From positions 1-45,405 of the forward strand of contig JBAVJG010000018.1 in the NCBI GenBank assembly GCA_049687655.1: a DNA stretch of 45,405 bases, written 5' to 3'. Position numbers and translations under genes: made by a program. The notes below the pieces were generated by a model. It saw nothing but the letters and a program-made list of their open reading frames with translations. It was not told where the DNA came from and ran no database searches. Positions 730-44,898 of the stretch are shown piece by piece (position 1 is the stretch's first letter; each line of letters starts with the position of its first letter). This stretch comes from Anaerolineales bacterium (GTDB lineage: Bacteria > Chloroflexota > Anaerolineae > Anaerolineales > Villigracilaceae).

Positions 730-742
730 ATCAACAACCAAT

Positions 743-806: not shown

Positions 807-810
807 AGGT

Positions 811-20607: not shown

Positions 20608-20614
20608 TTCTAGG

Positions 20615-20687
20615 GGTGGGCGAAGGGGCTCGAACCCTCAACATCTTGCTCCACAGGCAAGCGCTCTGCCATTGAGCTACGCCCACC
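20615..20687 (-). tRNA. tRNA-His (anticodon GTG)
   Basis: A manual cloverleaf works. G-1 plus acceptor GTGGGCG/CGCCCAC, D arm GCTC-AATGGCA-GAGC, anticodon arm CTTGC-CTGTGGA-GCAAG, T arm GAGGG-TTCGAGC-CCCTT, and discriminator C pairing with G-1. CCA is not encoded. Confidence 0.9.
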
Positions 20688-27923: not shown

Positions 27924-28013
27924 GAATATCCCTCAGCAATTAGCGTTCAGCTATAAGCTCTAAACTGTAAGAGGCCAGCATTTCAAGAGAAAGCTAAACG
28001 CTTACAGCTTTTA

Positions 28014-28409: not shown

Positions 28410-28498
28410 AATCAGTCTTATAAGTCGAACAAGTCTGAGCAGTCTAACATGTCAATACCTAACCGGTTGACTTGTAAGACCATTAGACTTGCCAGACT

Positions 28499-29725: not shown

Positions 29726-29845
29726 TGCAACGATTTTTTCTGATCTAGTACCCGGATCATAAGCTTATGATTGATAAACAGGAGTTACGCAGTCCTAATA
29801 AAGTGACTGTATTTGTTCATCAATCAAAAATACCTTTATCAGGCA

Positions 29846-30214
29846 CTAATAATCAGGAATCTCTTTCTCTTTTTTCTTGGGTTTCTTGCCTGGCAACGCA
29901 CGGATATGCTCAGAATTGACCGGATACCAAAGGATGCGATCCGGTACCATCCAGCCATCGGTCAGGTAAACATCACTACGGAACTGAACCGCAATCATTT
30001 TGTTGTCTATCTGGACAATGATGCCCTTCAGCCAGCCGCGTATGCGATCCTTATCTTTTTCATGATCGCAGTACACTTCGACGGTGTCTCCTACCTCGAA
30101 GGAATGCTCTATATCCGGATCACGCATATAAGAAATTTGTCCCATTCGACCTCCCCGCGTTGAGCGCCGCTTCCTGGAGCCCCGCGAATTCTGATTTGAA
30201 TGTATTGTCGCCAT
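29846..30214 (-). CDS. Hypothetical small basic protein inside the suf operon
   Basis: 122-aa ORF, or 99 aa from the ATG at 30145, which is preceded by GGGGAGG. The central block GDTVEVYCDHEKDKDRIRGWLKGIIVQIDNKMIAVQF looks like a small beta-barrel (Tudor/SH3-like). The tail is Lys-rich. I recognise no family. Confidence 0.45.
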   Translation of the reverse strand: MATIHSNQNSRGSRKRRSTRGGRMGQISYMRDPDIEHSFEVGDTVEVYCDHEKDKDRIRGWLKGIIVQIDNKMIAVQFRSDVYLTDGWMVPDRILWYPVNSEHIRALPGKKPKKKEKEIPDY

Positions 30215-30300
30215 TCTCTGCCTTATTCATTATAGATTATTTCTTGCATTGTGCACAAACATGCACAAAATGGGGTTTTGGTTTTTAGACCGGCAACTCT

Positions 30301-31647
30301 TTATTGAGCCGTCATTTTCTGGAGAATTGCAGTCTGGAACCGTTCCCTTACGCCCTCAAAAGGTATACGCTGCATGATCGGGTCGAAGAAACCTTCCACG
30401 ACCAATCGTTCAGCTTCTTTTTGCGGAATGCCGCGTGATTTCAAATAAAATAGCGGCTCTTCTTCCAGTTTTCCAATGGTCGCGCCATGCGTGCAGCGTA
30501 CATCATCGGCCAGGATCTCCAAACCAGGGATTGAGTCAGCGCGGGCTTGATCACTCAAGACTAGGTTGCGGTTAGCCTGGTAACCGTCCGTTTTTTGCGC
30601 GCCGGGCGCAACGTAAATCATACCCTGCCAGACCGAACGACTCTTGCCCTTGAGCGCGCCTTTGAACAGCAAGTCGCTAGTCGTGTCCGGGGCAAAATGG
30701 TTCTGCTGGGTATCGTGATCGAGGTGCTGTTTGCCATCCGTGAAATAGAATCCGGACATGCGGCCGTTCGATCCCCGACCGGCCAGATCCAATTCTGTAA
30801 AGTTCTTGGTCAGCCGAGAGCCGATAGCGCCGAAGATCCAATCCAGATTGGCATCGCGTTCAACGCGCGCGCGCTCGTGACTGAAATTCCAGACGTGCTT
30901 GCCCCAGGATTGCAACTCAACGAATTTCAAGTTGGCTGCCTGCTCGACTTTGATTTCAACCAAGCCTGCGTGCATTGTGTCGATACCGTCTTCTGTCGGT
31001 GAAGCAGACTCGTGAACATAGGTCACAGAAGCGCCTTCATCCACAAGCACCAGCATATGCGAAACATGAGCAAATGCGCCCGGTCCCCAATAAACGCTAT
31101 GCAGAGGTTGTTCCACCTGCACATTCCGGGGAACGTAGAGCACGACTCCATTCTGAGACAATGCACCTGCCAGAGCAGCGAATTTGCCTTCTTCCGGCTT
31201 GACGACATCTCCGAGAATACGCGCCACCAGTTCCGGGTGTTTTTCCTGTGCAGTTTTCAAGTCGGTGAATATGACGCCTTGTTTGGCAATGGATTCATCC
31301 AAATCAACCTCAACACCGCCAGGCTTTAGCACAATCTGCCCGCCGTGCTGGTCAGCGATCAGGGGTTTGAGCAAGTCATCAGGGACGGATGGCAGGTCTT
31401 TGTATGCGCCCTCCTGTGGCAACACAAATGAGTCGACCGGCAGATTGCGCAGGTCAGTTCGCCGCCAGGGTTCCTCGGTCGTCTTCGGCAAGGATAGGCG
31501 TTTAAACGCGTCCCAGGCCTGGGCCCGGTACGAAGCGAGTGAGTCGTCCTTTAATTCGGGTACATCCGCCTTTGTGAAGGTGAATTCACGTGTGGCTGAA
31601 TCCGTTCGTCTTCTTCTTGATACTACTACTTTAGGTTTGTCTGTCAT
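30301..31647 (-). CDS. sufD: Fe-S cluster assembly protein SufD
   Basis: SufB/SufD beta-helix family. C-terminal block GATIGKLEEEPLFYLKSRGIPQKEAERLVVEGF. Positioned after sufB. Confidence 0.88.
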   Translation of the reverse strand: MTDKPKVVVSRRRRTDSATREFTFTKADVPELKDDSLASYRAQAWDAFKRLSLPKTTEEPWRRTDLRNLPVDSFVLPQEGAYKDLPSVPDDLLKPLIADQHGGQIVLKPGGVEVDLDESIAKQGVIFTDLKTAQEKHPELVARILGDVVKPEEGKFAALAGALSQNGVVLYVPRNVQVEQPLHSVYWGPGAFAHVSHMLVLVDEGASVTYVHESASPTEDGIDTMHAGLVEIKVEQAANLKFVELQSWGKHVWNFSHERARVERDANLDWIFGAIGSRLTKNFTELDLAGRGSNGRMSGFYFTDGKQHLDHDTQQNHFAPDTTSDLLFKGALKGKSRSVWQGMIYVAPGAQKTDGYQANRNLVLSDQARADSIPGLEILADDVRCTHGATIGKLEEEPLFYLKSRGIPQKEAERLVVEGFFDPIMQRIPFEGVRERFQTAILQKMTAQ

Positions 31648-31668
31648 GTATATCTCTTATTACAAAGT

Positions 31669-31755
31669 GTCATTGCGAGGAGCGAAGCGACGCAGCAATC
31701 CCAGAGATACAAGTTACTTGAGATTTCCACGACCCCTTCGGGGTCTCGCAATGAG
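31669..31755. repeat. REP/MITE-like nested palindromic element in the sufB-sufD spacer
   Basis: Outer 10-bp arms tcattgcgag 31670..31679 and ctcgcaatga 31745..31754. The inner hairpin gaccccttcggggtc at 31731..31745 has a TTCG loop. The left arm continues as gagcgaagcgacgcagcaatcc. Confidence 0.6.
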
Positions 31756-31854
31756 AACATACTAGTACCGCAACCATATTAAATTGTAGGGTTAGAATTG
31801 ATTTTGTTCTTCAAAAATCAGCAGAATACTCTACAGCTTAAGGTTGTTGCGGCA

Positions 31855-33261
31855 CTAGCCTATACTACCTTCCATCTGCAACTGGATCAGGCGGTTCATT
31901 TCTACGGCGTATTCCATCGGCAGTTCTTTGACCAATGGCTCGATGAAGCCGGAAACAATCATTGTGGTGGCTTCCTCCTCACTCAGGCCGCGGGACATGA
32001 GATAGAAAAGCTGCTCATCCCCTACCTTGGAAACTGAAGCCTCGTGGCCGATGGTGACATCATCTTCGTCAATTTCGATGTAGGGATAGGTATCTGACTG
32101 TGATTGTGGATCGAGCAGCAACGCATCGCAAACCACGTTGGATTTGACGCCCTTAGCGCCTTTGTAGACCTTGAGCAGACCACGATAGGAGGCACGCCCG
32201 CCAGCCTTGCTGATGGACTTGGAAGTAATCTTGCTGGTGGTGTTGGGTGCAAAGTGATACATCTTGCTACCGGCGTCCTGAGTCTGGCCAGCGCCTGCAA
32301 ACGCCATCGAGAGCATCTCGCCACGCGCACCGGGCTCCATCAAATAGCAGGATGGGTATTTCATGGTTACTTTAGAACCCAGGTTGGCGTCCACCCATTC
32401 GTGCGTACCATTCTCGAATACTTTGGCTCGCTGAGTAACCAGGTTGTAAACGTTGGTAGACCAGTTCTGGATGGTAGTATAACGCGACCGCGCACCTTTC
32501 TTGACTACTATCTCGATCACACCGGAGTGGAACGAGTCGGTGGTATATTGCGGAGCAGTACAGCCTTCTACATAGTGTACCTGCGCGCCTTCGTCAACAA
32601 TGATGAGCGAGCGCTCGAACTGACCGACGTTGGCTATATTCAGGCGGAAGTAAGCCTGCAGGGGCAGGTCTACTTTGACACCTTTGGGCACATACACAAA
32701 GGATCCACCCGACCAGACAGCGCTGTTAAGCGCCGCCAGAGTGTTATCTTCAATCGGGATAACGGTGCCAAAATATTCACGGAACAAATCGGGGTGTTCA
32801 TGCAGGCCGTCTTCAATCGAAAGGAAGATCACACCCTGCTTTTCGAGATGCTCCTGAATGGAGTGATAAACCATTTCCGATTCATACTGCGCTCCCACAC
32901 CCGCCAAAAACTTTTGTTCAGCTTCGGGGATGCCCAGCTTGTTGAAAGTGTTCTTGATGTCATCGGGAACATTGTCCCAGGATTTTTCACTGCCTTGAGT
33001 CGGCTTGACATAGTAAAAAATGTTTTCCAGATCTAGGCCGGAAAGATCCGGTCCCCAGGTGGGCATAGGACGGCTCCGAAAATGCTCATATGCCTTCAGG
33101 CGGAAGTCGAGCATCCAACCCGGCTCGTTCTTCATCTTTGAAATTTGTTCTACAACCTCACGGCTCAAGCCTCTTTCGGCCTTGAAAAAGTAATTTTCTT
33201 CAGAGTCGTGAAAACCGTATTTATATTGTCCAATATCTTCGAGGAGCTTTTCGTCACTCAT
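31855..33261 (-). CDS. sufB: Fe-S cluster assembly scaffold SufB
   Basis: 468 aa. Blocks [27 protein letters not shown] and [20 protein letters not shown] are typical of SufB. Confidence 0.93.
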
Positions 33262-33344
33262 TTTTACCTCTCAAGTTCTGACCGCAAAGTAAGCAGAGTT
33301 ATTTCTCAATAAATCTCTGTGAGCTTTGTGGTCGCTATTGTTAA

Positions 33345-34118
33345 TTACGCTGCTACGTCCTCATACTTTTCGCGCACCCAATCATATCCCTGATCTTCCA
33401 GGTGCAAAGCCAGGTCAGGGCCGCCGGATTCAACAATTTTTCCGTCCAGCATGATGTGGACGAAATTCGGTTTGATGTAATTCAACAGGCGCTGGTAATG
33501 TGTGATGATCAGCACGCCCATGTCCGAACCCATCAAGGCGTTGACGCCATCCGCGACAATGCGTAACGCATCAATATCCAGGCCCGAATCTGTCTCATCC
33601 AATATAGCGATCTCCGGTCTGAGAGCCGCCATCTGCAAAATCTCAGCCCGCTTCTTTTCTCCGCCTGAAAAGCCATCATTTAGATAGCGTCCGGCAACAT
33701 TGTGATCCATTTTGAGCAAAGACATCTGCTCTTTGAGCATCTTACGAAACTCGGGAATCGGCATACCTTTATCTTCCGGGTTTCCAGCCTTACGTCGCGC
33801 ATTGAGCGCGGTACGCAGGAAGTTAGCTACGGTCACACCAGGGATGGCAACCGGATACTGGAACGCCAGGAACAGACCCATACGTGAACGTTCGTCCGGC
33901 GCGAGTTCGAGAATGTTCTCACCTTTGAACCAGGCCTCTCCATCGGTTACTTCGTAGCTGGGGTGTCCCATCAACGTGTAAGCCAGCGTCGACTTGCCCG
34001 TGCCATTGGGACCCATAATGGCATGGATCTCGCCTTGTTTAACTTTTAGGTCAACGCCTTTCAAGATTTCTTTGTTTTCGATATTGACGTGCAGGTTCTT
34101 GATAACCAGCTCAGACAT
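33345..34118 (-). CDS. sufC: Fe-S cluster assembly ATPase SufC
   Basis: Walker A GPNGTGKST, signature FSGGEKKR, Walker B AILDETDSGLD. The ATG at 34118 (MSELVIKNL) is preceded by AAGGAG. Confidence 0.93.
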   Translation of the reverse strand: MSELVIKNLHVNIENKEILKGVDLKVKQGEIHAIMGPNGTGKSTLAYTLMGHPSYEVTDGEAWFKGENILELAPDERSRMGLFLAFQYPVAIPGVTVANFLRTALNARRKAGNPEDKGMPIPEFRKMLKEQMSLLKMDHNVAGRYLNDGFSGGEKKRAEILQMAALRPEIAILDETDSGLDIDALRIVADGVNALMGSDMGVLIITHYQRLLNYIKPNFVHIMLDGKIVESGGPDLALHLEDQGYDWVREKYEDVAA

Positions 34119-34257
34119 GCATACTCCTTGCAAAAAAATCGCCGCCAGGGGGCGGGTGTTGTCACATTATGAATTATAGCAAAGTAGGGGGAATATGTCA
34201 ATATTTATGATATTTTTCTAGTAAATTAATTCTTCAAGATATTCGCATTTCAATGAT

Positions 34258-34314
34258 AGGACTTACGCCCCCCTTATTTTCGGTCTTCCTCCGTATTTTT
34301 GTGTAAGTCCTGAA
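34258..34314 (+). repeat. Structured intergenic repeat, short copy
   Basis: The core at 34268..34314 matches 53..99 at 44 of 47 positions. Outer 9-bp stem aggacttac 34258..34266 with gtaagtcct 34303..34311. Confidence 0.75.
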
Positions 34315-34358
34315 TGAGTTATTGTATACTCAACTTAAATTTGCGTTGGAGGGACTGC

Positions 34359-35267
34359 ATGAATAAAACTTTGAGACGGGTTGGGATCCTGTTTAGTGTT
34401 CTGATCGGGGTGGTCTTTCTCACCAATTTAGGGTTGTATTTTCTAGGGGAATCACGTTTGAAACGTGTATACATCATCCCAAAAGAGTCTGTTTTCGTTC
34501 CTAGCGACGATGAATCTATTACAGAAGGAAAACGCATTTTCCAATATCGCGGTTGCGAAGCCTGTCACGGCGAGCAAGTGGAGGGACTGGTCTATCTTGA
34601 TAATCCTGCTATCGGACAGGTCATCACGCCCAATCTGACTACCGGTATGGGCGGCATCAGTGCGCAGCACACAGACATGGATCTGCTCCGGTCCATCAGG
34701 CATGGCCTCCGCCCCGACGGGACTCCGTTGCTCTTCATGCCCTCGACAGAATTCTATTTCTTGAGCGATATAGATTTAGGCAGGGTGATCGCTTACATCC
34801 GCAGCGTACCGGCGGTGAACAACGAAATGCCGGTCAGCAGGCTTTCGGCCACAGGACGAATCGTGATGAACATCACCGAAGAGATCACTTTCCTGCCAGC
34901 CGAATTGATCCCGCATGATTCGCCACGTCCGGTTTCACCAGAACCCGGCATTACACCCGAGTACGGGGAATATCTGTCCTATTCCTGTAAAGTCTGTCAT
35001 GGGTTGACATTATCAGGTGGGGAGATTCCCGGCTTTCCACCCGAATGGCCTTCGGCTCCAAATTTGACCTCCGGGAGGGGCAGCCGTCTGCCTACCTGGG
35101 GTGAGGAGGGTTTCATTGAGATTATCCGCACCGGGCGAAAACACGGCCGCAGCATCAACCCTGAATACATGCCCTGGGAGTCCTACCGCCATATGACCGA
35201 TGATGAACTGCGTGCAGTATTCCTGTACCTTCAATCGCAACCGCCAAAGGAATTTGGCAATCGCTAA
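34359..35267 (+). CDS. Membrane-anchored dihaem cytochrome c
   Basis: N-terminal hydrophobic anchor and two CXXCH motifs (CEACH, CKVCH). The C-terminal block MPWESYRHMTDDELRAVFLYLQS is typical of class I cytochrome c domains. The ATG at 34359 follows GGAGGG. Confidence 0.8.
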   Translation: MNKTLRRVGILFSVLIGVVFLTNLGLYFLGESRLKRVYIIPKESVFVPSDDESITEGKRIFQYRGCEACHGEQVEGLVYLDNPAIGQVITPNLTTGMGGISAQHTDMDLLRSIRHGLRPDGTPLLFMPSTEFYFLSDIDLGRVIAYIRSVPAVNNEMPVSRLSATGRIVMNITEEITFLPAELIPHDSPRPVSPEPGITPEYGEYLSYSCKVCHGLTLSGGEIPGFPPEWPSAPNLTSGRGSRLPTWGEEGFIEIIRTGRKHGRSINPEYMPWESYRHMTDDELRAVFLYLQSQPPKEFGNR

Positions 35268-35330: not shown

Positions 35331-35359
35331 TTGACAGAGCAAAAAGGGACTGATATACT
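35331..35359 (+). promoter_or_regulatory. Sigma-70-type promoter upstream of the sufR-like gene
   Basis: TTGACA at 35331..35336, a 17-nt spacer, then TATACT at 35354..35359. Confidence 0.55.
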
Positions 35360-35417
35360 CGTATTTAGAAATTGGCAATCATCTTTCCAAATTTGGGAAG
35401 AGGAAAACTGTGAAACT

Positions 35418-36044
35418 ATGAAAAGCACGAGAGATCGCATTCTGCAAACTTTGCTTAAAAAACCTGGGGCGACCATCATTGACCTGGCCGAAGCGGTTGG
35501 GATCAATCCCATTTCCGTACGGCATCACCTCACCAATCTGCAGGTCGAGGGAATGGTCAGCGCGGAAGAGGAACGCCATGGTGTGGGACGTCCGCGCCTG
35601 ATCTACTCTCTTACCGAGCATGGGATGGAGCAATTCCCCACACGCTATCTGCGACTGACCTCGCGCCTGCTGGACCAGTTGAAATCATCCCTGCCGCAAC
35701 CAATGGTTAGCAAGCTGTTTGCCGAAATGGCGACCAGCCTGGCTGATGATTACGCCGATCAGATGCAGGGTCTGAGCATGGAAGAACGTTTGGATTTGAT
35801 CAGCGATCTGCTTGCCGAAGAGGGCTTCACAGTTGAGTGGGAAAAAACGGAAGATCAATATCGAATTCACGAGATCACCTGTCCATACTTGCAAATCGGA
35901 CAGAGTCACCCTGAAGTCTGTACTGTAGACCAGACACTCATCTCGAAGATGTTGGCTGTCCCCGCTGAAAAGGTACAATGCATTCTGGATGGCAGCTCCC
36001 ATTGCACATATGTGGTACAGCCCGCTGCCATGGTTAAAAGTTAA
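35418..36044 (+). CDS. sufR: SufR-like winged-helix regulator with C-terminal Cys cluster
   Basis: N-terminal HTH RDRILQTLLKKPGATIIDLAEAVGINPISVRHHLTNLQVEGMV. Four C-terminal Cys, including a C-x12-C pair. Adjacent and divergent to the suf operon. Confidence 0.65.
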   Translation: MKSTRDRILQTLLKKPGATIIDLAEAVGINPISVRHHLTNLQVEGMVSAEEERHGVGRPRLIYSLTEHGMEQFPTRYLRLTSRLLDQLKSSLPQPMVSKLFAEMATSLADDYADQMQGLSMEERLDLISDLLAEEGFTVEWEKTEDQYRIHEITCPYLQIGQSHPEVCTVDQTLISKMLAVPAEKVQCILDGSSHCTYVVQPAAMVKS

Positions 36045-36055
36045 TAGAGGTAATA

Positions 36056-36412
36056 ATGAGCGAAAACGAAACCAACGAAACTAACGTAATCACATGGTCG
36101 ATTCACGAAACGCATCCGGAACTGGTAGAAACCGTCCGGGAAAAACTGTCAGAAGTGATAGACCCTGAAATTGGAATGAGCATCATCCAGCTTGGTCTGG
36201 TGCGGGAAGTCGAGCTTGAAGATGAGGTCGCGCGGATGAAGATGATCCTGACGACTCCTTTTTGTCCGTATGGCCCGGCAATGATCGATATGACTCGTGA
36301 GAAAGCTGTCGAGGCGTTGAACAGGCCCGTCACCATTGAAATGGGTATGGACCAATGGGATTTTTCGATGATGGAAGACCCCTCTGCACTCGATTGGGGT
36401 ATGTACGCCTGA
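36056..36412 (+). CDS. sufT: SufT / DUF59 (MIP18-family) Fe-S assembly protein
   Basis: Contains VIDPEIGMSIIQLGLV and LTTPFCPYGP, the conserved DUF59 blocks. Confidence 0.8.
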   Translation: MSENETNETNVITWSIHETHPELVETVREKLSEVIDPEIGMSIIQLGLVREVELEDEVARMKMILTTPFCPYGPAMIDMTREKAVEALNRPVTIEMGMDQWDFSMMEDPSALDWGMYA

Positions 36413-36476: not shown

Positions 36477-37088
36477 TTATTTGTTCTTCTTCCAGTGCAT
36501 CACATGCGGTTTTTCATCTTCGGAAAATCCGGAGAGCACGATGAGCGCGTTGGTCACTGTTCCGCCCGGGTTGCGCCAGCGATGGTTCAGTCGCGCGGCA
36601 AACAATAAACTGTCTCCCGATCCAAGTGTGAAAATCTGCTTTTCTACGTGATACTCTAATTGACCGCGCATACAGAAGACGAACTCGTGCCCGCTGTGGA
36701 TCATGGTATGTGGACCACTATTGGCCCCGTTTTCCAACGTCAGCATAAACGGCTCAACCCGACCAGAAAACTGCTCGCCGCCAAGCCCTTCCCATACCCC
36801 TCTTGAAAAGGGCACCCGGGGCCGTTCCTGAGACGGGATAAAAATAACCTGCTGTTTTGTGGTTTGCTCCCCAAAAAAGGTGGTGATCGGAACGCCCATC
36901 GCATCTGCCAGTTTGTACAACGTACTGACCGAAGGTGAAGTTTTACCGCGTTCAATCATGCTCAAAGCGTTGGCAGATAATCCACTGGCAGTTGCTAACG
37001 CACGCATGGACATATTTCGCTCCTCACGTAATTGTCGTAAGCGCGTTCCAACATCTACCGAGTAAGCTTCTTTGTCGTATATATCCAT
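36477..37088 (-). CDS. XRE-family HTH regulator with C-terminal cupin domain
   Basis: HTH LRQLREERNMSMRALATASGLSANALSMIERGKTSPSVSTLYKLA, and a cupin block HSGHEFVFCMRGQLEY ... GDSLLF. The ATG at 37088 is preceded by AGAGGTGA. Confidence 0.8.
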   Translation of the reverse strand: MDIYDKEAYSVDVGTRLRQLREERNMSMRALATASGLSANALSMIERGKTSPSVSTLYKLADAMGVPITTFFGEQTTKQQVIFIPSQERPRVPFSRGVWEGLGGEQFSGRVEPFMLTLENGANSGPHTMIHSGHEFVFCMRGQLEYHVEKQIFTLGSGDSLLFAARLNHRWRNPGGTVTNALIVLSGFSEDEKPHVMHWKKNK

Positions 37089-37293
37089 AATCACCTCTTT
37101 TTAGTCCAAAATATTATACCGCACAAGAGAAATGCCTTGTTGGGCTATATCACCCATCCTTAGCACATACTTTTTGGAGGATTGATGTAATTTTAATGTG
37201 ACATATATGTGACATTCTTCACTATTGGAACGTTCAACGAAGTAGTATTCTTACAAAAGAATTCTTATATGTGAGTATGCGAATATATACAAT

Positions 37294-37629
37294 ATGGTAT
37301 CACAAACTCTTGCCCAGGAAGTTTCCCAACTTGAAGCGGATCTTTGTTTTGCACTTGCTGATCCAACCCGCATCCTGATTTTGTATGCGCTTGATGAGCA
37401 ATCACTTAATGTAACAGAGATCACCATCGCCTTGGACCTTACCCAACCCACTACCTCGCGTCACTTAAAGATTTTACGAGAGCGTGGTTTGGTTCATACG
37501 GAACGTCAGGGTACAACCATAACGTATCACCTGACAGACAAGCGCTTGATCGAGGCCCTGGATTTGTTAAGAAGTGTCTTGCGCGACAGACTGGCCCACC
37601 GCGCAAGCTTGATTGAAGAAATAGAATAA
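37294..37629 (+). CDS. ArsR/SmtB-family transcriptional regulator
   Basis: LADPTRILILYAL ... NVTEITIALDLTQPTTSRHLKILRERGLV. There is a single Cys (DLCFALAD). No SD is seen, and an A/T-rich -10-like sequence lies directly upstream of the ATG. Confidence 0.85.
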   Translation: MVSQTLAQEVSQLEADLCFALADPTRILILYALDEQSLNVTEITIALDLTQPTTSRHLKILRERGLVHTERQGTTITYHLTDKRLIEALDLLRSVLRDRLAHRASLIEEIE

Positions 37630-37654
37630 ACCGAACAAGGAGAACTGCCACGTA

Positions 37655-39106
37655 ATGAAGAAACGAAAGCCCTTTTGGCTTCTTGGCCTGGTTGGCATCG
37701 TGATTGTCATCACTGTACCGGTTGCGTATTTTTGGCCGAGAAACACTAAACCCGTGGATGATCCATGGAACAACGTGCCAACTCAAACGGTACATGTAGA
37801 CCACACAAATATCATCAATGGGCCATTTGAAAGTGGGCAGGAAGTTACCCATGCATGTCTGGAATGTCATGAAGAGGCAGCTGCGCAAGTGATAATGACC
37901 TCCCATTTCACCTGGGAAAGCGCGCCTGTCAACGTACCCTGGCGAGACGAAACGGTCACCATTGGTAAAAAGAACCAGATCAACAACTTCTGTATCGGTA
38001 CTCAGGGCAATCAGAAAAAGTGCATGACCTGTCATGTTGGCTACGGCTGGAGTGACAGCACTTTCGATTTTAACAACCCTGAGAACATAGACTGCCTGGC
38101 CTGCCATGCAGATACGGCTTCTTACGCTAAGGGCGAATACGGTTTACCGGCTGATGGCATTGACCTGGAAGCCGCTGCCCGGAGCGTGCGCGAGCCCACC
38201 CGTGACAACTGCGGCAAATGCCACTTCGATGGTGGCGGTGGTAATGGTGTAAAACACGGTGACCTCGACGAAAGCCTGTACTTCCCCACCGAAAACCTGG
38301 ACGTGCACATGGGGCGCCTCGACTTTCAGTGCACGGATTGCCATCAAACCACAGACCACCAGATTAAAGGTCGCATGGTTGCCGATAATTACACCATTAA
38401 CTCAGAAGACCAGGTGGCATGCACTGACTGTCACGATGCCGTCCAACATCAGGATGAACGCATTAATACGCATGTTGAATCCGTTGCCTGCCAAACCTGT
38501 CATATTCCCGCTATCGCGCTGGAAGATCCCACCAAAGTGACCTGGGACTGGTCCACTGCCGGTCAGGACCTGCCAGAAGACCACTTCACCTACTTGAAAA
38601 TCAAAGGCAACTTTACGTACGAAAAGGACTATCAACCAACCTACGTGTGGTTCAACGGGAATTTATCCTACCGCTACCTGCTGGGCGACAAGCTGGATCC
38701 GTCCAAGCCCACCATGATTGACCTGCCCGCAGGCGATATTAAAGACACCGCGGCCAAAATATTCCCATTCAAGATCCACGTCGCAAAGCAACCCTATGAC
38801 ACCGTCAATAACATCTTGCTCCAGCCTCGCACAGGTGGCAACGCAGTGGCTGGCGGTGGTTTCTGGGAAACTTTTGACTGGCCCTCCGCACTCGAATTGG
38901 GTGCACAGGATGCCGGCCTGGAATATAGCGGTCAATACGGTTTCATAGAAACCTGGATGTACTGGCCTACCACCCACATGGTCCAGCCGAAAGAGAATGC
39001 CCTGGGCTGCGACGATTGCCACGGCGAAGATGGCCGCATGGATTGGGAAGCCCTGGGTTATCCCGGCGACCCAATCGAATGGGGCGGCCGTTTTGACAAG
39101 CAATAA
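37655..39106 (+). CDS. Membrane-anchored octahaem c-type cytochrome, resembling the tetrathionate-reductase (Otr) family
   Basis: N-terminal hydrophobic anchor and eight CXXCH motifs (CLECH, CMTCH, CLACH, CGKCH, CTDCH, CTDCH, CQTCH, CDDCH) in 483 aa. Size, haem count and the CGKCHFDGGGGNGVKHGD block fit my recollection of the Otr-type octahaem family. This was not verified by search. Confidence 0.7.
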   Translation: MKKRKPFWLLGLVGIVIVITVPVAYFWPRNTKPVDDPWNNVPTQTVHVDHTNIINGPFESGQEVTHACLECHEEAAAQVIMTSHFTWESAPVNVPWRDETVTIGKKNQINNFCIGTQGNQKKCMTCHVGYGWSDSTFDFNNPENIDCLACHADTASYAKGEYGLPADGIDLEAAARSVREPTRDNCGKCHFDGGGGNGVKHGDLDESLYFPTENLDVHMGRLDFQCTDCHQTTDHQIKGRMVADNYTINSEDQVACTDCHDAVQHQDERINTHVESVACQTCHIPAIALEDPTKVTWDWSTAGQDLPEDHFTYLKIKGNFTYEKDYQPTYVWFNGNLSYRYLLGDKLDPSKPTMIDLPAGDIKDTAAKIFPFKIHVAKQPYDTVNNILLQPRTGGNAVAGGGFWETFDWPSALELGAQDAGLEYSGQYGFIETWMYWPTTHMVQPKENALGCDDCHGEDGRMDWEALGYPGDPIEWGGRFDKQ

Positions 39107-39130
39107 ACACATGCGAACAAGGAATACATC

Positions 39131-41923
39131 ATGATTATACGCATGATAAAGAATTCGAATTTCTTCAAATTTATTCTGGCAGGCCTTCTGATCGGTCTGA
39201 TCGCCCTGGGACTTGCCATCGTTATCCAGACCGCATCCGCGCGAGGAGCAGAAGCGCCCTCCCCGGCCGCTTCACCGTTGCATCCCGATTTTGCTCTGCT
39301 TGACGCAGATGGAGTCAATGTACTCGAAAGCGGCGCGCCCGTCTCCACCATGCAGACCTGCGGGCAGTGCCACGACACGGAATACATCGTCTCGCACTCC
39401 TTCCATGCTGATCTGGGGTTGTCTGATTATTTTACAACCAGCGAGATAGACGCCAGCAACGGCACATTTGGACGCTGGAATCCACTCACATACCGCTATC
39501 TGTCGCAATCTGGCGATAGCCTGCTCGATATGAGCACTCCTGAGTGGTTGATGCGCTACGGCGATCAGATTCCCGGGGGCGGGCCAGCTACGACCAGTCG
39601 CGAGGGCAGGCCGCTCGTGAGTCTGAGTCCGGATGCGAACAACCCGGAAACTAGTTTTCTTGATCCCCAAACGGGACAACCTCAGAGCTGGGATTGGTCC
39701 CAATCCGGCGTTATCGAAAACAACTGCTTCCTGTGCCATCTCGAATACCCGAACAACATAGCCCGTACATCCGCTATACGCGAAGGCGCGTTCGGCTGGG
39801 CCAACACCGCCACCCTGGCTGGAACTGGCATCGTTCTTGATGCCGGTGGCGGAAGCTACACCTTCACAACAGAAGCTTTCAATAAAAACGGCGAAGTAAA
39901 AGCCGCTGTGATCGCCCTGCAAGATCCGACAAATGAAAACTGCGCTCAGTGTCACGGACCAGTACATACCGATAGTGAACCATTCGTCTTCCAGACCACA
40001 ACACCTGAAAACGACACCACTGGTCAGATCATTTCAGGGCAGAGAATTTCCGAATCGGGCATGAATATCAGCAATAAAGATGAGCTGGCTCGTTCCTGGG
40101 ACATCCATGCAGAGCGCCAATTGCAGTGCGTGGATTGCCACTTTTCACTCAACAATCCGGTACACGAACAGGACGTCAGAGGCGCGGCCCCCGACCACCT
40201 GCTCTACGATCCGCGCCGTCTCGACATTGGCGAGTATCTTGAAAAGCCCAATCACAACTTTGCCCGCGGTCAAAGCGCCCAATTCACCGTAGCCCCGGAA
40301 CTCAAAGGCAGCATGCGTCGCTGTGAATCCTGTCACGATAGCGATAAGGGTCACGCCGACTGGCTGCCTTACATCGATCGTCACATGGAAGTGGTGGCTT
40401 GCGAAACCTGCCACATCCCACAGCTATATGCACCCGCGATCCAGGATTACGACTGGACAGGGGTCACTACGGACGGCCAGGCACAGATCGTCTATCGAGG
40501 CATCGAAGCCGGAAGCGTCGAAACAGCCAGCCTGGTCGACATGCCGATCACGGTCACCAATCTGGTAACCGGCTACGAACCCATCCTGCTTAAACGCACC
40601 AATGTGGATGGGGACACGCTGCTGGCTCCGTACAACCTGGTGACGACCTGGTACTGGGTGTATGACGATGCGAACGGCAACACCCGTCCGATTCGTCTCC
40701 TGGACCTGGAAACTGCGTGGCTCGAAAATGGTACGTACGCGACTGAAATTATTTCCGTATTCGATGCCAACAATGATGGCGAGCTTTCCAAAGCAGAGTT
40801 GCGCATCGACTCATCTGAAAAAGAATCCCTGATTACCGGAAGGCTGTCAGCATTGGGATTGAGTAATCCGCGCATCGAAGGCCAGATACAACCATACTCT
40901 ATCAACCACAACGTCGCGCGCAGCGAATGGGCTGTAAATGACTGTCAGTCCTGTCACAGCAACGAATCGCGCATAACGCAACCCATCAAACTGGCGGATT
41001 ATGTTCCCGCTAACGTGACACCTGAATTCGTTACCGACAGCAATGTTCCACAAACCGGTGAAATGTATACGGACGCTTCCGGTGCATTGTATTATCGGCC
41101 TGTACCAACAAATGAAAATATGTATATCTTCGGCAACAGCCGTATAGGCTGGGTGGACTGGTTTGGAGGATTATTCTTCCTGGCCGTCGTCTTGGGGATC
41201 AGTGGTCACGGAACATTGCGCTACGTTTCATCATTACGCAAGCCAAAACATGATGTAGAAACTGAAAAAGTTTACATGTACCATAAGTACGAGCGTTTCT
41301 GGCACTGGCTACAAACTGTGCTGATCGTGCTGCTCTTACTCACTGGCCTGGTCATCCACCGGCCGGATATGTTCGGTGCATTATCTTTCCGCGGAATGGT
41401 CACCATGCATAACGTCATGGCTGGTATCCTGGCGCTCAATGCTGCCCTGGCCCTGTTCTATCATGTGACGACCGGCGAAGTGAAACAATATATCCCGCGT
41501 CCGTACGGCTTCTTCAACGACGCCATCTTGCAGACCAAGTTCTACCTGAATGGCATCTTCAAGGGTGCAGAACATCCCTTCGAGAAGACAGAGCGCAAAA
41601 AGCTAAATCCGCTTCAGCAAGTGACCTACTTTGGAATCCTGAACGTGCTGCTTCCGCTGCAAGGCCTGACCGGCATCCTGATGTGGGGTGTCCAACGTTG
41701 GCCTGGGGCTACAAACATGCTCGGCGGTCTGCCTTTCCTGGCACCCTTCCACACGCTGTTGGCCTGGACGTTTGCGGCCTTCATTATCGGTCACGTCTAT
41801 CTGACGACTACCGGGCGCGAACCGCTGGAAGGCGTCAAAAGCATGGTCACCGGCTGGGAAGATGTCGAAGTGCATGCACCTGAACTAGCACCTATTGAAT
41901 CTGAAGAGAAACCGGCTAAATAA
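39131..41923 (+). CDS. Heptahaem cytochrome c fused to a C-terminal dihaem cytochrome b (Ni/Fe-hydrogenase/FdnI-type) membrane domain
   Basis: Signal peptide ending ASARG. Seven CXXCH motifs (CGQCH, CFLCH, CAQCH, CVDCH, CESCH, CETCH, CQSCH). About five helices follow, with conserved His (ERFWHW, MHNV, PFHTLL, IGHVYLT), typical of the b-type cytochrome family. Confidence 0.8.
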   Translation: MIIRMIKNSNFFKFILAGLLIGLIALGLAIVIQTASARGAEAPSPAASPLHPDFALLDADGVNVLESGAPVSTMQTCGQCHDTEYIVSHSFHADLGLSDYFTTSEIDASNGTFGRWNPLTYRYLSQSGDSLLDMSTPEWLMRYGDQIPGGGPATTSREGRPLVSLSPDANNPETSFLDPQTGQPQSWDWSQSGVIENNCFLCHLEYPNNIARTSAIREGAFGWANTATLAGTGIVLDAGGGSYTFTTEAFNKNGEVKAAVIALQDPTNENCAQCHGPVHTDSEPFVFQTTTPENDTTGQIISGQRISESGMNISNKDELARSWDIHAERQLQCVDCHFSLNNPVHEQDVRGAAPDHLLYDPRRLDIGEYLEKPNHNFARGQSAQFTVAPELKGSMRRCESCHDSDKGHADWLPYIDRHMEVVACETCHIPQLYAPAIQDYDWTGVTTDGQAQIVYRGIEAGSVETASLVDMPITVTNLVTGYEPILLKRTNVDGDTLLAPYNLVTTWYWVYDDANGNTRPIRLLDLETAWLENGTYATEIISVFDANNDGELSKAELRIDSSEKESLITGRLSALGLSNPRIEGQIQPYSINHNVARSEWAVNDCQSCHSNESRITQPIKLADYVPANVTPEFVTDSNVPQTGEMYTDASGALYYRPVPTNENMYIFGNSRIGWVDWFGGLFFLAVVLGISGHGTLRYVSSLRKPKHDVETEKVYMYHKYERFWHWLQTVLIVLLLLTGLVIHRPDMFGALSFRGMVTMHNVMAGILALNAALALFYHVTTGEVKQYIPRPYGFFNDAILQTKFYLNGIFKGAEHPFEKTERKKLNPLQQVTYFGILNVLLPLQGLTGILMWGVQRWPGATNMLGGLPFLAPFHTLLAWTFAAFIIGHVYLTTTGREPLEGVKSMVTGWEDVEVHAPELAPIESEEKPAK

Positions 41924-41970
41924 AGTAAAGAGACTGAAACATAAAGGATCACTTTAATTCAGGAGTAAAA

Positions 41971-42543
41971 ATGGCAACACATTCACCTGTAAAACAAAAG
42001 AAAGGCATCAGCCTGAGAGCCTTATTCAACCGGCCAGAAAAACCGTACTGGCATCCATACTTTGGCGGGTTGGTACTGGGCATTGTCCTGTTCATGGCCT
42101 TCTTCCTGACTGGAAACGGCCTGGGCGCTTCGGGCGCTATCAGCCGCTTTGGTGTGCTTGTCGAGGATGCTATCGCCCCCCAGCATGTAGACACCACACC
42201 TTACCTGCTCAAGATGGCTGGCGGCGAAAAGAACCCCTTGGATGATTGGATCGTACCGGTCTTCCTGGGCATGCTTGTCGGGGCCTTTGTCTCCGGTTTG
42301 CTACGCGGACGCCTCAAATTCAAGACCAATAAAGGTCCCAACATTTCGGTGCGTACCCGCTGGATGACAGCATTTATCGGTGGCACAATTTTCCTATATG
42401 GCGCGCGCCTGGCACGCGGATGTACTTCAGGTCAGGCCCTCTCCGGTGGCGCGACCCTGGCTGCCGGATCGTGGTTGGTAATGTTCGCCATCTTTGGCGG
42501 CGCTTACGGCCTGGCCTACTTTGTACGCAAACTGTGGCTATAA
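41971..42543 (+). CDS. YeeE/YedE-family sulfur-transport protein (half-size subunit A)
   Basis: Polytopic membrane protein with GLGASGA and ARGCTSGQALSGG motifs, characteristic of the Sulf_transp family. Confidence 0.8.
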   Translation: MATHSPVKQKKGISLRALFNRPEKPYWHPYFGGLVLGIVLFMAFFLTGNGLGASGAISRFGVLVEDAIAPQHVDTTPYLLKMAGGEKNPLDDWIVPVFLGMLVGAFVSGLLRGRLKFKTNKGPNISVRTRWMTAFIGGTIFLYGARLARGCTSGQALSGGATLAAGSWLVMFAIFGGAYGLAYFVRKLWL

Positions 42544-42553
42544 GGAGAATGTC

Positions 42554-43879
42554 ATGAATTTTCCTCTAGAAGCTTTTCAAACTGTTAGCGCCAGCAATCT
42601 GTGGACTTATATTATCTTCGGATTGATCGGTGTTGCCTTCGGGTTTGTGCTCGAAAGCAGCGGTTTTGGCAACTCCAAGATACTGGCAGCCCAGTTCTAT
42701 TTCAAGAATCTGACCGTCCTTAAAGTGATGTTCACTGCCATAGTTGTTGCGATGGTTTTACTCTTCGCAATGATTGGTCTCGGCCTGTTGGATTACAACG
42801 CGATCTGGGTCAACCCTACCTACCTGGCATCCGGTGTGATTGGCGGTCTGGTAATGGGCGTGGGCTTCATCATAGGCGGGTTCTGACCGGGCACTTCTGT
42901 GGCTAGTTCAGCCACTGGCAAAATTGATGGTATGTTTTTCCTGCTCGGCGGTTTCTTTGGCGCATTCCTGTTTGGTGAGACCGAAAAATATTTCGATACC
43001 TGGTATAACTACGCCGGATATTACGGCCGTGTGACCCTGGATCAGGTTTTCAATCTCCCGCTTGGTGTAGTAGTCTTGTTGGTCGTGCTGATGGCGTTGT
43101 TTATGTTCTGGGGTGGAGAACAACTGGAACGCATCTTCGGCGGTCGTGACCTGAGCAAGGAACCCAAACTGCGTATCGTAGGCGCAGGTGCTTTGTTTGT
43201 ATTGGCCGTGGGCGTCATCCTGATCGGCTCCCCCAGCCTGGATGAAAAATACACCCGAGCCTCGATCACACGTACATATGTCCAGGAAGCCCCGGAAGGC
43301 ACGACAGAGGAAGAATTACAGGCGCTGGAGCCCCTCCAGGTGAAATTAAGTCCCGACGAGGCGCTGGCAAGGCGTGAAATGCAAATCTCGCCCGCTGAAT
43401 TGTTCACCACGCTGCACGACCAGAAGCTAAAACCTGTCATGTTGGACGTCCGTCCGGAAGCGCAATACAACCTCTTCCACATTCGAGGCGCACAAAATAT
43501 CCAGGTAAGTGAACTGCCCACTTACGCGAAAGAGCTGATCGCGGAGTACGCGCCTAATCGTGTCATCGTTGTGATGAGTAATGACGAGACAAACGCCACC
43601 CAGGCTTGGAAAGTATTGGTCGCTGAAAGGGTTTCAAACGTGTATATCCTGGAAGGCGGACTGAACAACTGGATCGCATTCTTCGGCGCGGAGGATCGCA
43701 ACATCGAGGGCAAAGTGGCCAGCCCGGCAAACGATCAATTGGAATATATCTTCCCGGCTGCATTGGGCGACCGTTATGAGTGTTCAGATCCGAGCCCCAT
43801 CAAATTCGAAGAGTTGGAATTTGAACCCAAGATTCAACTGCAACTCAAACGAGACAAGAGTGGCGGTGGCTGCGGGTAA
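42554..43879 (+). CDS. YeeE/YedE-family subunit B fused to a rhodanese-like domain, with an in-frame TGA at 42884..42886 (candidate selenocysteine, or else a nonsense mutation)
   Basis: ORF-track entries 42494..42886 and 42899..43879 are in the same frame and separated only by this TGA. The read-through product reads GVIGGLVMGVGFIIGGF-U-PGTSVASSATG. The U aligns with the Cys of FIGGTIFLYGARLARG-C-TSGQ in subunit A, with the same 12-residue spacing after the IGG motif. The ATG at 42554 follows AAGGAG. Confidence 0.6.
42899..42915 (+). promoter_or_regulatory. SECIS-like hairpin downstream of the in-frame TGA
   Basis: GUGGCU-AGUUC-AGCCAC is a 17-nt stem-loop with a perfect 6-bp stem. It starts 12 nt after the UGA, and GU in the apical loop falls at positions 23-24 counted from the U of UGA. 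Confidence 0.5.
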
Positions 43880-43905
43880 GCGAGCGATATCCCTTTAAAC
43901 CATCG

Positions 43906-43935
43906 AACCCTGAAGGATGTACATCCTTCAGGGTT
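43906..43935. terminator. Terminator hairpin between convergent genes
   Basis: Perfect 30-nt palindrome aaccctgaaggatgt/acatccttcagggtt, followed by ttctcattt on the plus strand. Confidence 0.8.
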
Positions 43936-43964
43936 TTCTCATTTGCACATAATTTTCAAAGGCA

Positions 43965-44738
43965 CTATTTGTCGTACTCACTAAAGACAGATACCAAGGC
44001 AAAATATTCTTTTTCTGAAAAACCCAAACCACGCCGGAACCATTCATCGATCGTACCAAACTCCTCTTTGACCTGCGTGAGAGCAGCGTTCAGATATTCG
44101 GTGCGCGCATCCAAGAGAGGTGCATACATCTTCCAGGGAACGCCAAAATACGACAACTTGCTCAGCCGCCGGAATATTTCTTCTGTATAGGCATCCAGAC
44201 GCTCATTTGTCTTGAGATAATCTTCCATTACAGATTCAGCCGAAACGCCCAGCACAAGTTGGAGCAGGCTTGAAACAACACCTGTGCGGTCTTTGCCTGC
44301 TGAGCAGTGGATCAGCACGGGCAGGTTCTCAGGGTTTGAGATGCGCTGGAACAGGGCTTTCAACTGGGGTAAATAGCGGGTAGCATACTCACGATAGGCC
44401 TGATAAGACTCAGCCACATAATCCACCCTGCGCTCGCTGCCGAACATCAGGGAAAACAGCCGGTGCAGCGAACGTCCGTGATAGTCAATGATCGGGCGCA
44501 TGGGGATGTTGAAAAACGTAAAAGGCTTGGCAGTTGGGACTCGATCTGGCTCTTTCCTACGTTCGAGTTCTGAACGTAAATCGCAAACGGTTTTAATCCC
44601 TAAAGAAGCGATACGCTCGAGATCGGCATCTGTGGCCTTTGAAAGATCGCCGCTGCGATAGAGCAATCCTTCTTTTAGGCGTGTCCCGTTTTGTGTCCTG
44701 TAACCGCCAAAGTCACGAAAATTGTTAATAGATTGCAT
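43965..44738 (-). CDS. Protein-tyrosine phosphatase-family protein
   Basis: C-x5-R active-site loop HCSAGKDRTG. The ATG at 44738 (MQSINNFRDFGGY) is typical of this family's N-terminus. Confidence 0.8.
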   Translation of the reverse strand: MQSINNFRDFGGYRTQNGTRLKEGLLYRSGDLSKATDADLERIASLGIKTVCDLRSELERRKEPDRVPTAKPFTFFNIPMRPIIDYHGRSLHRLFSLMFGSERRVDYVAESYQAYREYATRYLPQLKALFQRISNPENLPVLIHCSAGKDRTGVVSSLLQLVLGVSAESVMEDYLKTNERLDAYTEEIFRRLSKLSYFGVPWKMYAPLLDARTEYLNAALTQVKEEFGTIDEWFRRGLGFSEKEYFALVSVFSEYDK

Positions 44739-44898
44739 GTGGTTTGTTAGCTGCCTTTTCCCTAAAATTCCAAGTACAATGCCTGCGTTGGGTCCCAACA
44801 ATATCAAACAGTGATAATGTTGTCAATTTATTCAAGTGCAACCCTTCAAGATTGTCAGTGCAGTGCCTATACAGTTCCAAAACAGGAGATCATCCCGA

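Follow-up and report, generated by a model that had tools for sequence, protein, structure and literature searches.

The 45,405-nucleotide window analysed here (contig JBAVJG010000018.1 of assembly GCA_049687655.1, from an Anaerolineales bacterium of the Villigracilaceae) carries an operon that joins two multihaem cytochrome genes to a split YeeE/YedE-type membrane channel and a rhodanese-like domain. The listing of open reading frames (ORFs) places five of them on the forward strand, at 37294-37629, 37655-39106, 39131-41923, 41971-42543 and 42554-43879. They encode, in this order, a regulator of the ArsR/SmtB family, an octahaem cytochrome c, a fusion of a heptahaem cytochrome c with a cytochrome b, and the two halves of the YeeE channel, the second of which bears the rhodanese-like domain. 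The gaps between the genes are 25, 24, 47 and 10 nucleotides (nt), and the series is closed by an intrinsic-terminator-like hairpin (43905-43936, forward strand) whose 14-bp stem includes 6 G-C pairs and runs into a T-rich tail. The octahaem protein contains eight CXXCH motifs and the fusion protein seven, giving 15 c-type haems. This layout had been proposed in an initial annotation made from the sequence, including the gene identities, which are each supported by profile searches (NF033788, TIGR04315, Ni_hydr_CYTB, Sulf_transp and Rhodanese). The five co-directional frames lie where that annotation had put them, but the fifth is not the plain single frame it had been taken for. It forms one frame of 441 codons only with readthrough of a TGA at 42884-42886, which had gone unreported, and standard ORF calling yields two pieces instead, 42494-42886 and 42899-43879. 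Together, the five genes make up a single operon, conserved widely yet uncharacterised.

The second gene (37655-39106, forward strand) encodes a membrane-anchored octahaem cytochrome c of 483 residues, with an N-terminal hydrophobic anchor at residues 4 to 29. The protein scores 566 bits against the Otr-family model TIGR04315 (cut-off 375) and 466 bits against the Otr structure 1SP3 over residues 50 to 475, which covers the whole fold. All eight CXXCH motifs are invariant in 55 orthologues. The segment GKKNQINNFC aligns with GKKNSINNFC of 1SP3, so that Lys105 (37967-37969) corresponds to K56 and Cys113 (37991-37993) to C64, and both residues are kept in 55 of 55 orthologues. We take K56, from the 2004 structure paper, to be the lysine ligand of the catalytic haem 2, and C64 to be a neighbouring cysteine of the active site. 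The octahaem protein is thereby assigned to the Otr family with a predicted intact active site, and reductase activity is predicted for it.

The third gene encodes a protein of 930 residues. Its N-terminal anchor and heptahaem c domain (39131-41110, forward strand; seven CXXCH motifs) are followed by a linker transmembrane (TM) helix and a dihaem cytochrome b domain of the FdnI/PhsC type (41111-41923, forward strand; Ni_hydr_CYTB at residues 717 to 908). An HHalign comparison of two orthologue alignments matched residues 196 to 443 of the heptahaem domain to Otr residues 144 to 300 with 97.4% probability, placing haems 2 to 6 on Otr haems 3 to 7 and leaving the first and last haems outside the match. 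For the last-haem region, phmmer gave a local, non-significant alignment to the region of Otr haem 8. If the first and last haems are equivalent as well, the haem that is missing would be the catalytic haem 2 of Otr. All seven motifs are conserved, together with eight non-motif histidines that are conserved or nearly so. These eight suffice for bis-histidine ligation of seven haems, and the domain, a diverged Otr paralogue that appears to have no catalytic haem, is therefore read as a probable wire.

The cytochrome b domain scores 78 bits against Ni_hydr_CYTB (gathering score 30.1), and its TM helices hold the invariant residues His725, 743, 760, 778, 874 and 888. The AlphaFold2 (AF2) model of the 930-residue protein is good only for this part, which matches FdnI (1KQF_C, template modelling score 0.68) and 6G94, and is poor for the haem domain. 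Family match and conserved residues identify it as a dihaem cytochrome b of the kind seen in FdnI, HyaC or PhsC, predicted to interact with quinol or quinone and fused to the haem wire. Against the PhsC equivalog NF011582, it reaches 154 bits, below the cut-off of 204, and the ORF listing shows no PhsA or PhsB encoded in the operon. The public name "thiosulfate reductase cytochrome b subunit" is thus a label at the level of the domain and not of the function. Both cytochrome assignments made earlier, an Otr-type octahaem protein and not one of another family, and a quinol-linked cytochrome b fused to a haem wire, agree with these results.

Conservation of the cluster was assessed in 80 species-representative genome loci anchored on the fifth gene, nearly all of them from metagenome-assembled genomes (MAGs) of Anaerolineales or other Chloroflexota. 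By tblastn with the window proteins, gene content and order are identical in every locus whose contig reaches far enough upstream, with one exception (L004) that has a short cytochrome b gene only. Intact clusters are present in about 60 Anaerolineales species. The neighbourhood had been chosen beforehand as a test of the proposed linkage, and the linkage passes it; the arrangement is far beyond chance. In three betaproteobacterial MAGs (Gallionellaceae, Thiobacillus and one unclassified), the four structural genes are present at 53-73% identity, with arsR missing and with mutually unrelated flanks, which argues for horizontal transfer of the four-gene cassette. By this comparison, the cytochromes and the YeeE pair are functionally linked, and they travel as a cassette. 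A nitrite or hydroxylamine reductase serving nitrogen-oxide detoxification, with the YeeE genes merely adjacent, would draw on the cited reduction of these two compounds by Shewanella Otr in vitro. The conserved order with the YeeE pair in about 60 species, the joint transfer, the gaps of 10-47 nt under one terminator and the lack of conserved nitrogen-cycle genes nearby in the flanking-ORF clustering make this very improbable.

Beyond the five genes, the flanking-ORF clustering recovered only regulators as conserved, namely an XRE-cupin gene in 39 loci and a pair of genes for a helix-turn-helix (HTH) and a SufT-like protein in 16-24 loci. It yielded no other conserved functional neighbour: cyclophilin, YwiC, acyl-CoA dehydrogenase and DsrE-like genes occur in only 8-19 loci and at variable distance. 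Individual loci show further particularities. The exceptional locus L004 (8397-11302, Anaerolineales GCA_041301925.1) encodes a cytochrome b of 309 residues that retains the last ~100 residues of the haem domain and lies beside the YeeE pair, with no otr gene nearby. In the closest complete-genome relative (MFD05684.bin.1.47, contig_34207; L003/L005, 5161-9432), both cytochrome genes are frameshifted. Extra selenocysteine sites were considered for these split genes and rejected, as translation revealed frameshifts and no in-frame TGA; the breaks probably come from errors in long-read assembly and do not mark pseudogenes. The Thiobacillus MAG (L035, 11485-12786) has, directly after the cassette, a gene for an FccB-like flavocytochrome c sulfide dehydrogenase flavoprotein, and the downstream gene in the Gallionellaceae MAG (L018) encodes a TerB-DnaJ protein.

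The fourth and fifth genes encode the split channel. Half A (41971-42543, forward strand; 190 residues) covers Sulf_transp profile positions 162 to 309 and is of the C-terminal-half, PmpA/YedE1-like type. Half B (42554-43879, forward strand; 441 codons) covers positions 2 to 156 and is of the N-terminal-half, PmpB/YedE2-like type; it carries residue 111, read below as selenocysteine (Sec), two extra TM helices, the rhodanese-like domain and a GGCG tail. Aligned with the StYeeE structure 6LEO, half A spans residues 237 to 325 and places Cys151 (42421-42423) on C293, and half B spans residues 3 to 136 and places codon 111 on C91. C293 and C91 are the two non-replaceable residues of StYeeE (PMC7449682) and those retained in split PmpAB proteins (PMC11582611). 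Cys151 is kept in 62 of 62 orthologues of half A. In 67 orthologues of half B, only positions 111 and 440 are invariant cysteines, and its full-length homologues with cysteine have 440-441 residues and up to 81% identity. The pair has the two adjacent half-size genes and the single conserved Cys/Sec site per half of the split type. It departs from the small four-TM subunit of about 130-150 residues without an extra domain, as half A has 190 residues and half B has 441, with six TM helices and a soluble domain.

The structurally characterised YeeE (TsuA) imports thiosulfate (PMC7449682). Split YedE1E2 imports zero-valent sulfur, requires both cysteines and has an adjacent arsR gene; the fused thiosulfate-transporter form YedE3 was no substitute for it in the zero-valent-sulfur assay (PMC10812762). 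The ORF listing and the domain search show no gene in the operon for a cytoplasmic TsuB/YeeD or TusA partner. The pair is predicted to form a split YeeE channel of the YedE1E2/PmpAB type that keeps only the two essential central residues, Cys151 on the outer side and residue 111 on the inner side, and to function in uptake.

Codon 111 of half B is the in-frame TGA (42884-42886, forward strand), whereas TGC or TGT stands there in 82 of 84 related loci; the two others, contigs from the Joint Genome Institute (L001/L002), have TGA as in the window. They share 87% protein identity with the window downstream of the TGA. Between the window and L001, synonymous divergence (dS) is about 1.3, the ratio of nonsynonymous to synonymous rates (dN/dS) is 0.02 upstream and 0.055 downstream of the TGA, and the gene lengths differ by 1 codon. 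Such low ratios on both sides at this dS indicate that both flanks are still translated in frame. A degenerate-pattern scan found TGA at codon 111 in 8 further metagenome contigs, which represent three more lineages, two of them with the cytochrome operon (L085/L087 and L089). Downstream of the UGA lies a hairpin, GUGGCU-AGUUC-AGCCAC (42899-42915, forward strand), that resembles the sequence element for Sec insertion (SECIS) and starts 12 nt past the codon. The stem-loop comparison found such a hairpin in all four TGA lineages. Its start lies 12-15 nt beyond the UGA, with an offset of 0-2 nt from one lineage to another; the loop is (A)GUU(C) in each, and the stem sequence differs. A strict definition of the hairpin is matched by 6 of 11 Sec forms and by 0 of 80 Cys forms; the other five Sec forms carry this hairpin with a single mismatch. 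Folding of the 62-nt region 42884-42945 gave an energy that is not unusual (z = 0.97) and thus uninformative, so the local hairpin comparison across lineages was used instead.

With a UGA aligned to cysteine, a stem-loop at a SECIS-like distance and purifying selection downstream, residue 111 of half B is very likely selenocysteine, and YeeE/YedE selenoproteins have already been catalogued in reviews (PMC13188914). That the TGA is a true stop, leaving a pseudogene or two polypeptides and a broken module, would fit the splitting of the gene by ORF calling, the unremarkable folding energy and the lack of any Sec-machinery gene or second selenoprotein gene in the 45-kb window. It would not fit the position of the TGA exactly on the codon of an essential cysteine, its retention at dS about 1.3 under a dN/dS of 0.02-0.06 on both sides with a 1-codon length difference, its recurrence in four lineages, each equipped at that spacing with a hairpin of its own that 80 Cys forms lack, or the precedent of the catalogued selenoproteins. 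No ribosome-binding site or ATG was found after the TGA either, and we regard a true stop as barely credible.

The same residue raises the question of a selenium or tellurium system, in which selenite, tellurite or a selenosulfur compound would be reduced by the Otr enzyme, with selenium imported through the YedE-like pair. The YedE family is linked to selenium metabolism (matches to NF033796 and TIGR04112), the channel residue is Sec in four lineages, and a TerB-domain gene follows the cassette in L018. The scores against the two YedE selenium models lie far under the cut-offs (44 vs 350 and 19 vs 200 bits), however, and neither the window nor the set of conserved neighbours contains a selD, yedF or Sec-machinery gene. 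That a protein contains Sec is no sign of a selenium substrate, and the cysteine at this site in 82 of 84 close relatives means that selenium is not required. This explanation is improbable.

The rhodanese-like domain of half B (residues 283 to 375; 43400-43678, forward strand) scores 54 bits against PF00581 (cut-off 22) and has the rhodanese fold, with a predicted local distance difference test score of 80-90 in the AF2 model and Foldseek template modelling scores of 0.6-0.8 to single-domain rhodaneses, a generic similarity. It has no catalytic cysteine. The catalytic cysteine of 6MXV aligns to Met341, in the loop VVMSNDE, where MSNDET replaces the CX5R-type active-site loop. In the aligned family representatives, this position holds V, M, I, L or A (these top residues account for 96 sequences) and the SNDE loop is conserved. 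Past the domain, the protein ends in a basic flexible arm, KRDKSGGGCG (43847-43876, forward strand), which contains the invariant Cys440 (43871-43873). Of 67 orthologues, 65 have the ending DKSGGGCG and two have DKSSGGCG. In the AF2 model of the fifth protein (orthologue P0001), the arm is disordered and only the rhodanese domain is modelled with confidence.

A search of 1.84 billion representative proteins for this rhodanese family returned 910 related clusters, of which the best 150 (P0361-P0510, representatives at 50% identity) were analysed. A GGCG, GGGCG or GGCGG ending is present in 111 of these best 150, and it is exactly GGCGG in 11. About half of the tailed representatives are fused to YeeE (~400-440 residues) and half are stand-alone proteins (~205-215 residues). 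In SoxY, the cysteine of a C-terminal GGCGG binds sulfur substrates (PMC6067878). Profile searches with the five proteins of the operon returned neither a SoxY nor a SoxZ family match.

The side of the membrane on which this domain lies can be predicted from StYeeE, whose N-terminus is outside and whose helix H7 reverses the topology (PMC7449682). Half B corresponds to the N-terminal half, followed by an equivalent of H7 and one more TM helix, which would place the soluble domain outside. The unfused version found in the Fibrobacteres-Chlorobi-Bacteroidetes (FCB) group agrees with this: its YeeE-B stops just past the H7 equivalent, and the separate rhodanese protein starts with a basic N-terminus and one hydrophobic TM helix. 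The domain therefore likely lies on the outer face. The initial annotation had assigned it to the handling of the imported product, a cytoplasmic role that it cannot have if it is placed outside and lacks a catalytic cysteine. A broader idea, which we offer as speculative and on balance doubtful, is that rhodaneses with a Cys-less SNDE loop and a GGCG(G) arm form an unrecognised family of extracytoplasmic sulfur carriers. They would be part of a portable module for capture, presentation and import, beside or tethered to a Cys/Sec channel, that plugs into unrelated quinol-linked periplasmic reductases (Psr-type, or Otr with its wire). Were this true, enzymes of the Otr family would physiologically act on sulfane sulfur that is bound to a protein or delivered by the arm, and not on tetrathionate or nitrite in free form.

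The same accessory genes occur beside another type of enzyme. Four sampled contexts of stand-alone rhodanese homologues (Marinimicrobia, Lentisphaeria, a Chlorobi-annotated MAG and a fourth large genome) and the Sec-form contigs L088 and L090-L092 share one layout, found in 4 of 4 contexts as well as in the contigs. First comes a regulator, then a molybdoenzyme that resembles PhsA/PsrA and bears a twin-arginine signal, an FeS subunit, an NrfD subunit, YeeE-A, YeeE-B and, last, an anchored Cys-less rhodanese with a GGC tail. The association of the YeeE pair and carrier module with two unrelated quinol-linked, outward-facing oxidoreductases is the strongest comparative evidence for a role in redox chemistry of sulfur compounds on the outer face, and it suggests that the Otr enzyme and haem wire take the place of PsrABC. 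Rhodanese-like proteins have been reported as sulfur suppliers to sulfur-reducing enzymes in Aquifex, and Sud of Wolinella is a polysulfide-sulfur transferase.

Among these clusters, L088 and L090-L096 (e.g. L090:9201-14359 and L093:2569-8621) comprise 6-7 genes with a MerR-like or Crp-like regulator, and their rhodanese has a Lys-rich tail ending in QGGC. In some Marinimicrobia-like contigs, YeeE-B carries Sec. The MerR/HspR-like regulator (L090: 9201-9653; orthologues in L088, L092, L093 and L095) has a Cys-rich C-terminal extension with seven cysteines in about 60 residues, which suggests a metal-cluster or thiol-based sensor.

These results bear on the model of the initial annotation, in which an outer-face Otr enzyme reduces tetrathionate or a related oxyanion, the YeeE pair imports thiosulfate and a cytoplasmic rhodanese processes it. 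The model gains from the intact active site of the Otr-family member, the uptake of thiosulfate by TsuA (PMC7449682), the best score of the cytochrome b being against the PhsC model and the conservation of the operon. It is hard to reconcile with a Cys-less rhodanese-like domain predicted outside, with zero-valent sulfur as the import of split YedE1E2, for which the fused thiosulfate type was no substitute (PMC10812762), with the occurrence of the same accessory module beside Psr/Phs-like enzymes, and with the missing TsuB/YeeD or TusA partner. It survives in weakened form only and is distinctly unlikely.

Control of the operon may involve two regulators. The first gene (37294-37629, forward strand) encodes an ArsR/SmtB-family protein of 111 residues that scores 84 bits against NF033788 (cut-off 55) and lies under the cut-offs of specific models (BigR, 50 vs 155 bits; TsoR, 61 vs 115). 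Its single Cys18 (37345-37347) is kept in 47 of 47 orthologues and a second cysteine is absent. The protein thus has the ArsR/SmtB fold of BigR/SqrR regulators without their α2 and α5 cysteine pair or a score at the BigR cut-off. TsoR is the best specific regulator match, and the Tso system was rejected as a counterpart: the score is below the cut-off and Tso is an unrelated operon of three selenoproteins. On the reverse strand, a divergent XRE-HTH and cupin regulator (36477-37094; Pfam HTH_3 and Cupin_2) has its orthologue at the same divergent position in 39 related loci. Between the two genes, the 9-bp palindrome ATGTGACAT is repeated in tandem at 37196-37204 and 37207-37215 (span 37196-37215, unstranded) and is operator-like. 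Among 46 orthologous loci, 33 have AT(G/A)TGACAT with at most one mismatch 5' of arsR, the expectation being 0.03 per 300 bp. Another conserved box, CACTATTG (37220-37227), is kept in 30 of the 46. The ArsR-family repressor and the XRE-cupin regulator thus flank a conserved operator region, and either may bind these boxes.

Taking the parts together, we propose, with a probability of about 0.42, that the operon encodes a quinone-linked machine for sulfur redox and relay on the outer face of the membrane, working reductively, with hand-off through the arm and inward relay. Menaquinol would be oxidised at the b haems, and electrons would pass by way of the seven c haems to the Otr enzyme with its eight. 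This enzyme would reduce a sulfane-sulfur substrate with an S-S bond (polysulfide or persulfide, possibly tetrathionate), either free or held on the Cys440 arm. At the channel mouth, the arm and the rhodanese-like domain would ferry sulfane sulfur between Cys151 and the active site of the Otr enzyme. From Cys151, it would move on to Sec111 and into the cytoplasm, where it may be assimilated or may relieve repression by ArsR. The chain would be reversible in principle.

Several observations weigh against this proposal. Both the membrane part and the haem domain are poorly modelled by AF2, so that no geometry backs a contact between arm and active site. Sud ranks only 46th among the Foldseek matches of the rhodanese domain, and the acidic SNDE loop is unlike a persulfide-stabilising cradle. 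The outside location has weak support from the positive-inside rule, with 3.8 K+R counted in the loop vs 3.3 after TM6. With one cysteine, the ArsR protein could not operate the two-Cys switch of BigR/SqrR. The window holds no Sec-machinery gene to go with Sec111. The physiological substrate of Otr is itself unsettled, and the enzyme is cited as reducing nitrite and hydroxylamine too in vitro. Finally, the presence of the cassette in sulfur- and iron-oxidising Betaproteobacteria fits an oxidative direction at least as well.

The same machine could indeed run oxidatively. An Otr-type enzyme would couple sulfide, polysulfide or thiosulfate to the arm cysteine in the manner of SoxXA/SoxY or TsdA, electrons would enter the quinone pool by way of the 15 c haems and the b haems, and the bound sulfane sulfur would be imported, to be oxidised in the cytoplasm or assimilated. 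The betaproteobacterial hosts and a cytochrome b of the FdnI type make this a serious rival, if an unlikely one. FdnI-type cytochromes b, to which the fold match points, normally reduce quinone, an orientation known from Fdh-N. The hosts include Gallionellaceae, Thiobacillus and another betaproteobacterium, with the FccB-like gene directly downstream in L035, and an otr gene adjoins soxY/soxZ genes in sulfur-oxidising lucinid symbionts. The arm is SoxY-like, and YeeE proteins of the SoxT type import sulfur for oxidation (PMC11582611). The reported activities of Otr are nevertheless solely reductive, the FCB partner module sits with Psr/Phs-like enzymes that are usually read as reductases, and the flanking-ORF clustering found no sHdr, rDsr or PDO genes conserved beside the operon. 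The reductive reading remains the one we favour.

Other genes of the window were noted in passing. A complete Suf Fe-S assembly cluster (SufC, SufB, SufD, SufS, a NifU/SufU-like protein and a Rieske protein) lies just upstream, at 27576-34133 on the reverse strand. It is followed on the forward strand by a gene for a membrane-anchored dihaem class-I cytochrome c with two Cytochrom_C domains (34314-35267), which is replaced by a UbiA-family gene in L003, and by the HTH regulator and SufT-like FeS_assembly_P protein (35331-36412) that precede the operon in related loci too. Directly past the terminator, a convergent gene of the Y_phosphatase3 tyrosine-phosphatase family (43965-44807, reverse strand) is shared by the Sec-form locus L001 and not by most other loci. 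Further away, a nickel superoxide dismutase gene is followed by one for a small S26-type peptidase, probably its maturation protease (238-1107, forward strand). A UvrD-like helicase of 1013 residues has an N-terminal DUF559/MTES_1575 endonuclease-like domain (24479-27520, forward strand). An IS66-family transposase gene (19101-20546, forward strand) lies next to tRNA-His (20613-20686, reverse strand) and a histidyl-tRNA synthetase gene, and the GC skew is unusual at 19-20 kb (+0.18).

Each domain found here is of a known family, and known kinds likewise include sulfur reductases assisted by rhodaneses, split YeeE pairs under ArsR control and selenoproteins of the YeeE family. In the literature searched, we found no description of the gene combination, of an Otr-derived wire fused to a cytochrome b, of the Cys-less rhodanese family with its GGCG arm or of its pairing with both Psr-type and Otr-type enzymes. 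Nor was a described system linking an Otr enzyme to an importer found there, in line with the initial annotation, which knew of none. For octahaem cytochromes of the Otr family, a structure and in vitro activities have been available since 2004, but no settled physiological role. The conserved operon gives them a candidate role in sulfur metabolism and named partners, namely a quinol wire, a sulfur channel and a carrier arm. Marinimicrobia have been implicated in sulfur cycling in oxygen-minimum zones, and the module bears on how abundant uncultured groups handle polysulfide and sulfane sulfur at the cell surface. The candidate Sec site, at a channel residue essential in StYeeE, is a natural experiment on selenium versus sulfur in a sulfur relay. 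Public annotation of the operon is wrong or empty, with gene 5 split at the UGA and gene 3 named as a thiosulfate reductase subunit.

Among known systems, the Otr of Shewanella oneidensis (1SP3; TIGR04315) shares with the octahaem protein the eight CXXCH motifs, the whole fold and the equivalents of Lys56 and Cys64. The protein described here differs by its membrane anchor, its own quinol-linked wire (an Otr paralogue with a cytochrome b) and the sulfur channel and carrier encoded alongside. To our knowledge, the Shewanella enzyme is a soluble periplasmic protein without such dedicated partners. The YedE1E2/PmpAB importers with an ArsR regulator of the PigS/BigR type likewise have adjacent half-size Sulf_transp genes, one essential cysteine in each (C293/C91) and an arsR gene in the locus. 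In comparison, Sec stands for Cys in half B, which also has two further TM helices and a domain predicted to be extracytoplasmic, half A is longer, with 190 residues against about 130-140, and the context is a cytochrome operon instead of a detoxification operon with persulfide dioxygenase (PDO/blh). SoxT1B/SoxR and SoxT1A of Hyphomicrobium denitrificans also combine a YeeE-family channel with an ArsR-type repressor, and imported sulfur is the proposed signal (PMC11582611). SoxT proteins are full-length, with nine TM helices and three cysteines, and the regulator of the present operon has one cysteine. The catalogued YeeE/YedE selenoprotein (PF04143, GUxSG, WP_012471001.1) is a Sulf_transp protein with Sec in place of a conserved loop cysteine (PMC13188914). 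Here, the motif is GGFUPGT, and the loop that bears it is the C91-type one in the N-half of a split subunit fused to a rhodanese.

The arm brings to mind SoxYZ loaded by SoxXA, as both have a Gly-flanked cysteine at the extreme C-terminus of an extracytoplasmic protein with c-type cytochromes encoded nearby. The resemblance is limited to the arm, which is here attached to a rhodanese fold and not to the SoxY fold, in an operon that has no SoxZ, SoxB or SoxXA. Finally, PsrABC with Sud in Wolinella succinogenes and the Aquifex rhodaneses share with the operon a quinol-linked sulfur reductase on the outer face and a rhodanese fold that presents sulfur, and the Psr-like FCB cluster is directly analogous to them. 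In the operon, by comparison, a multihaem cytochrome replaces the molybdoenzyme, and the rhodanese-like domain has a C-terminal GGCG arm and a tether to a YeeE half instead of a Sud-type active-site cysteine.

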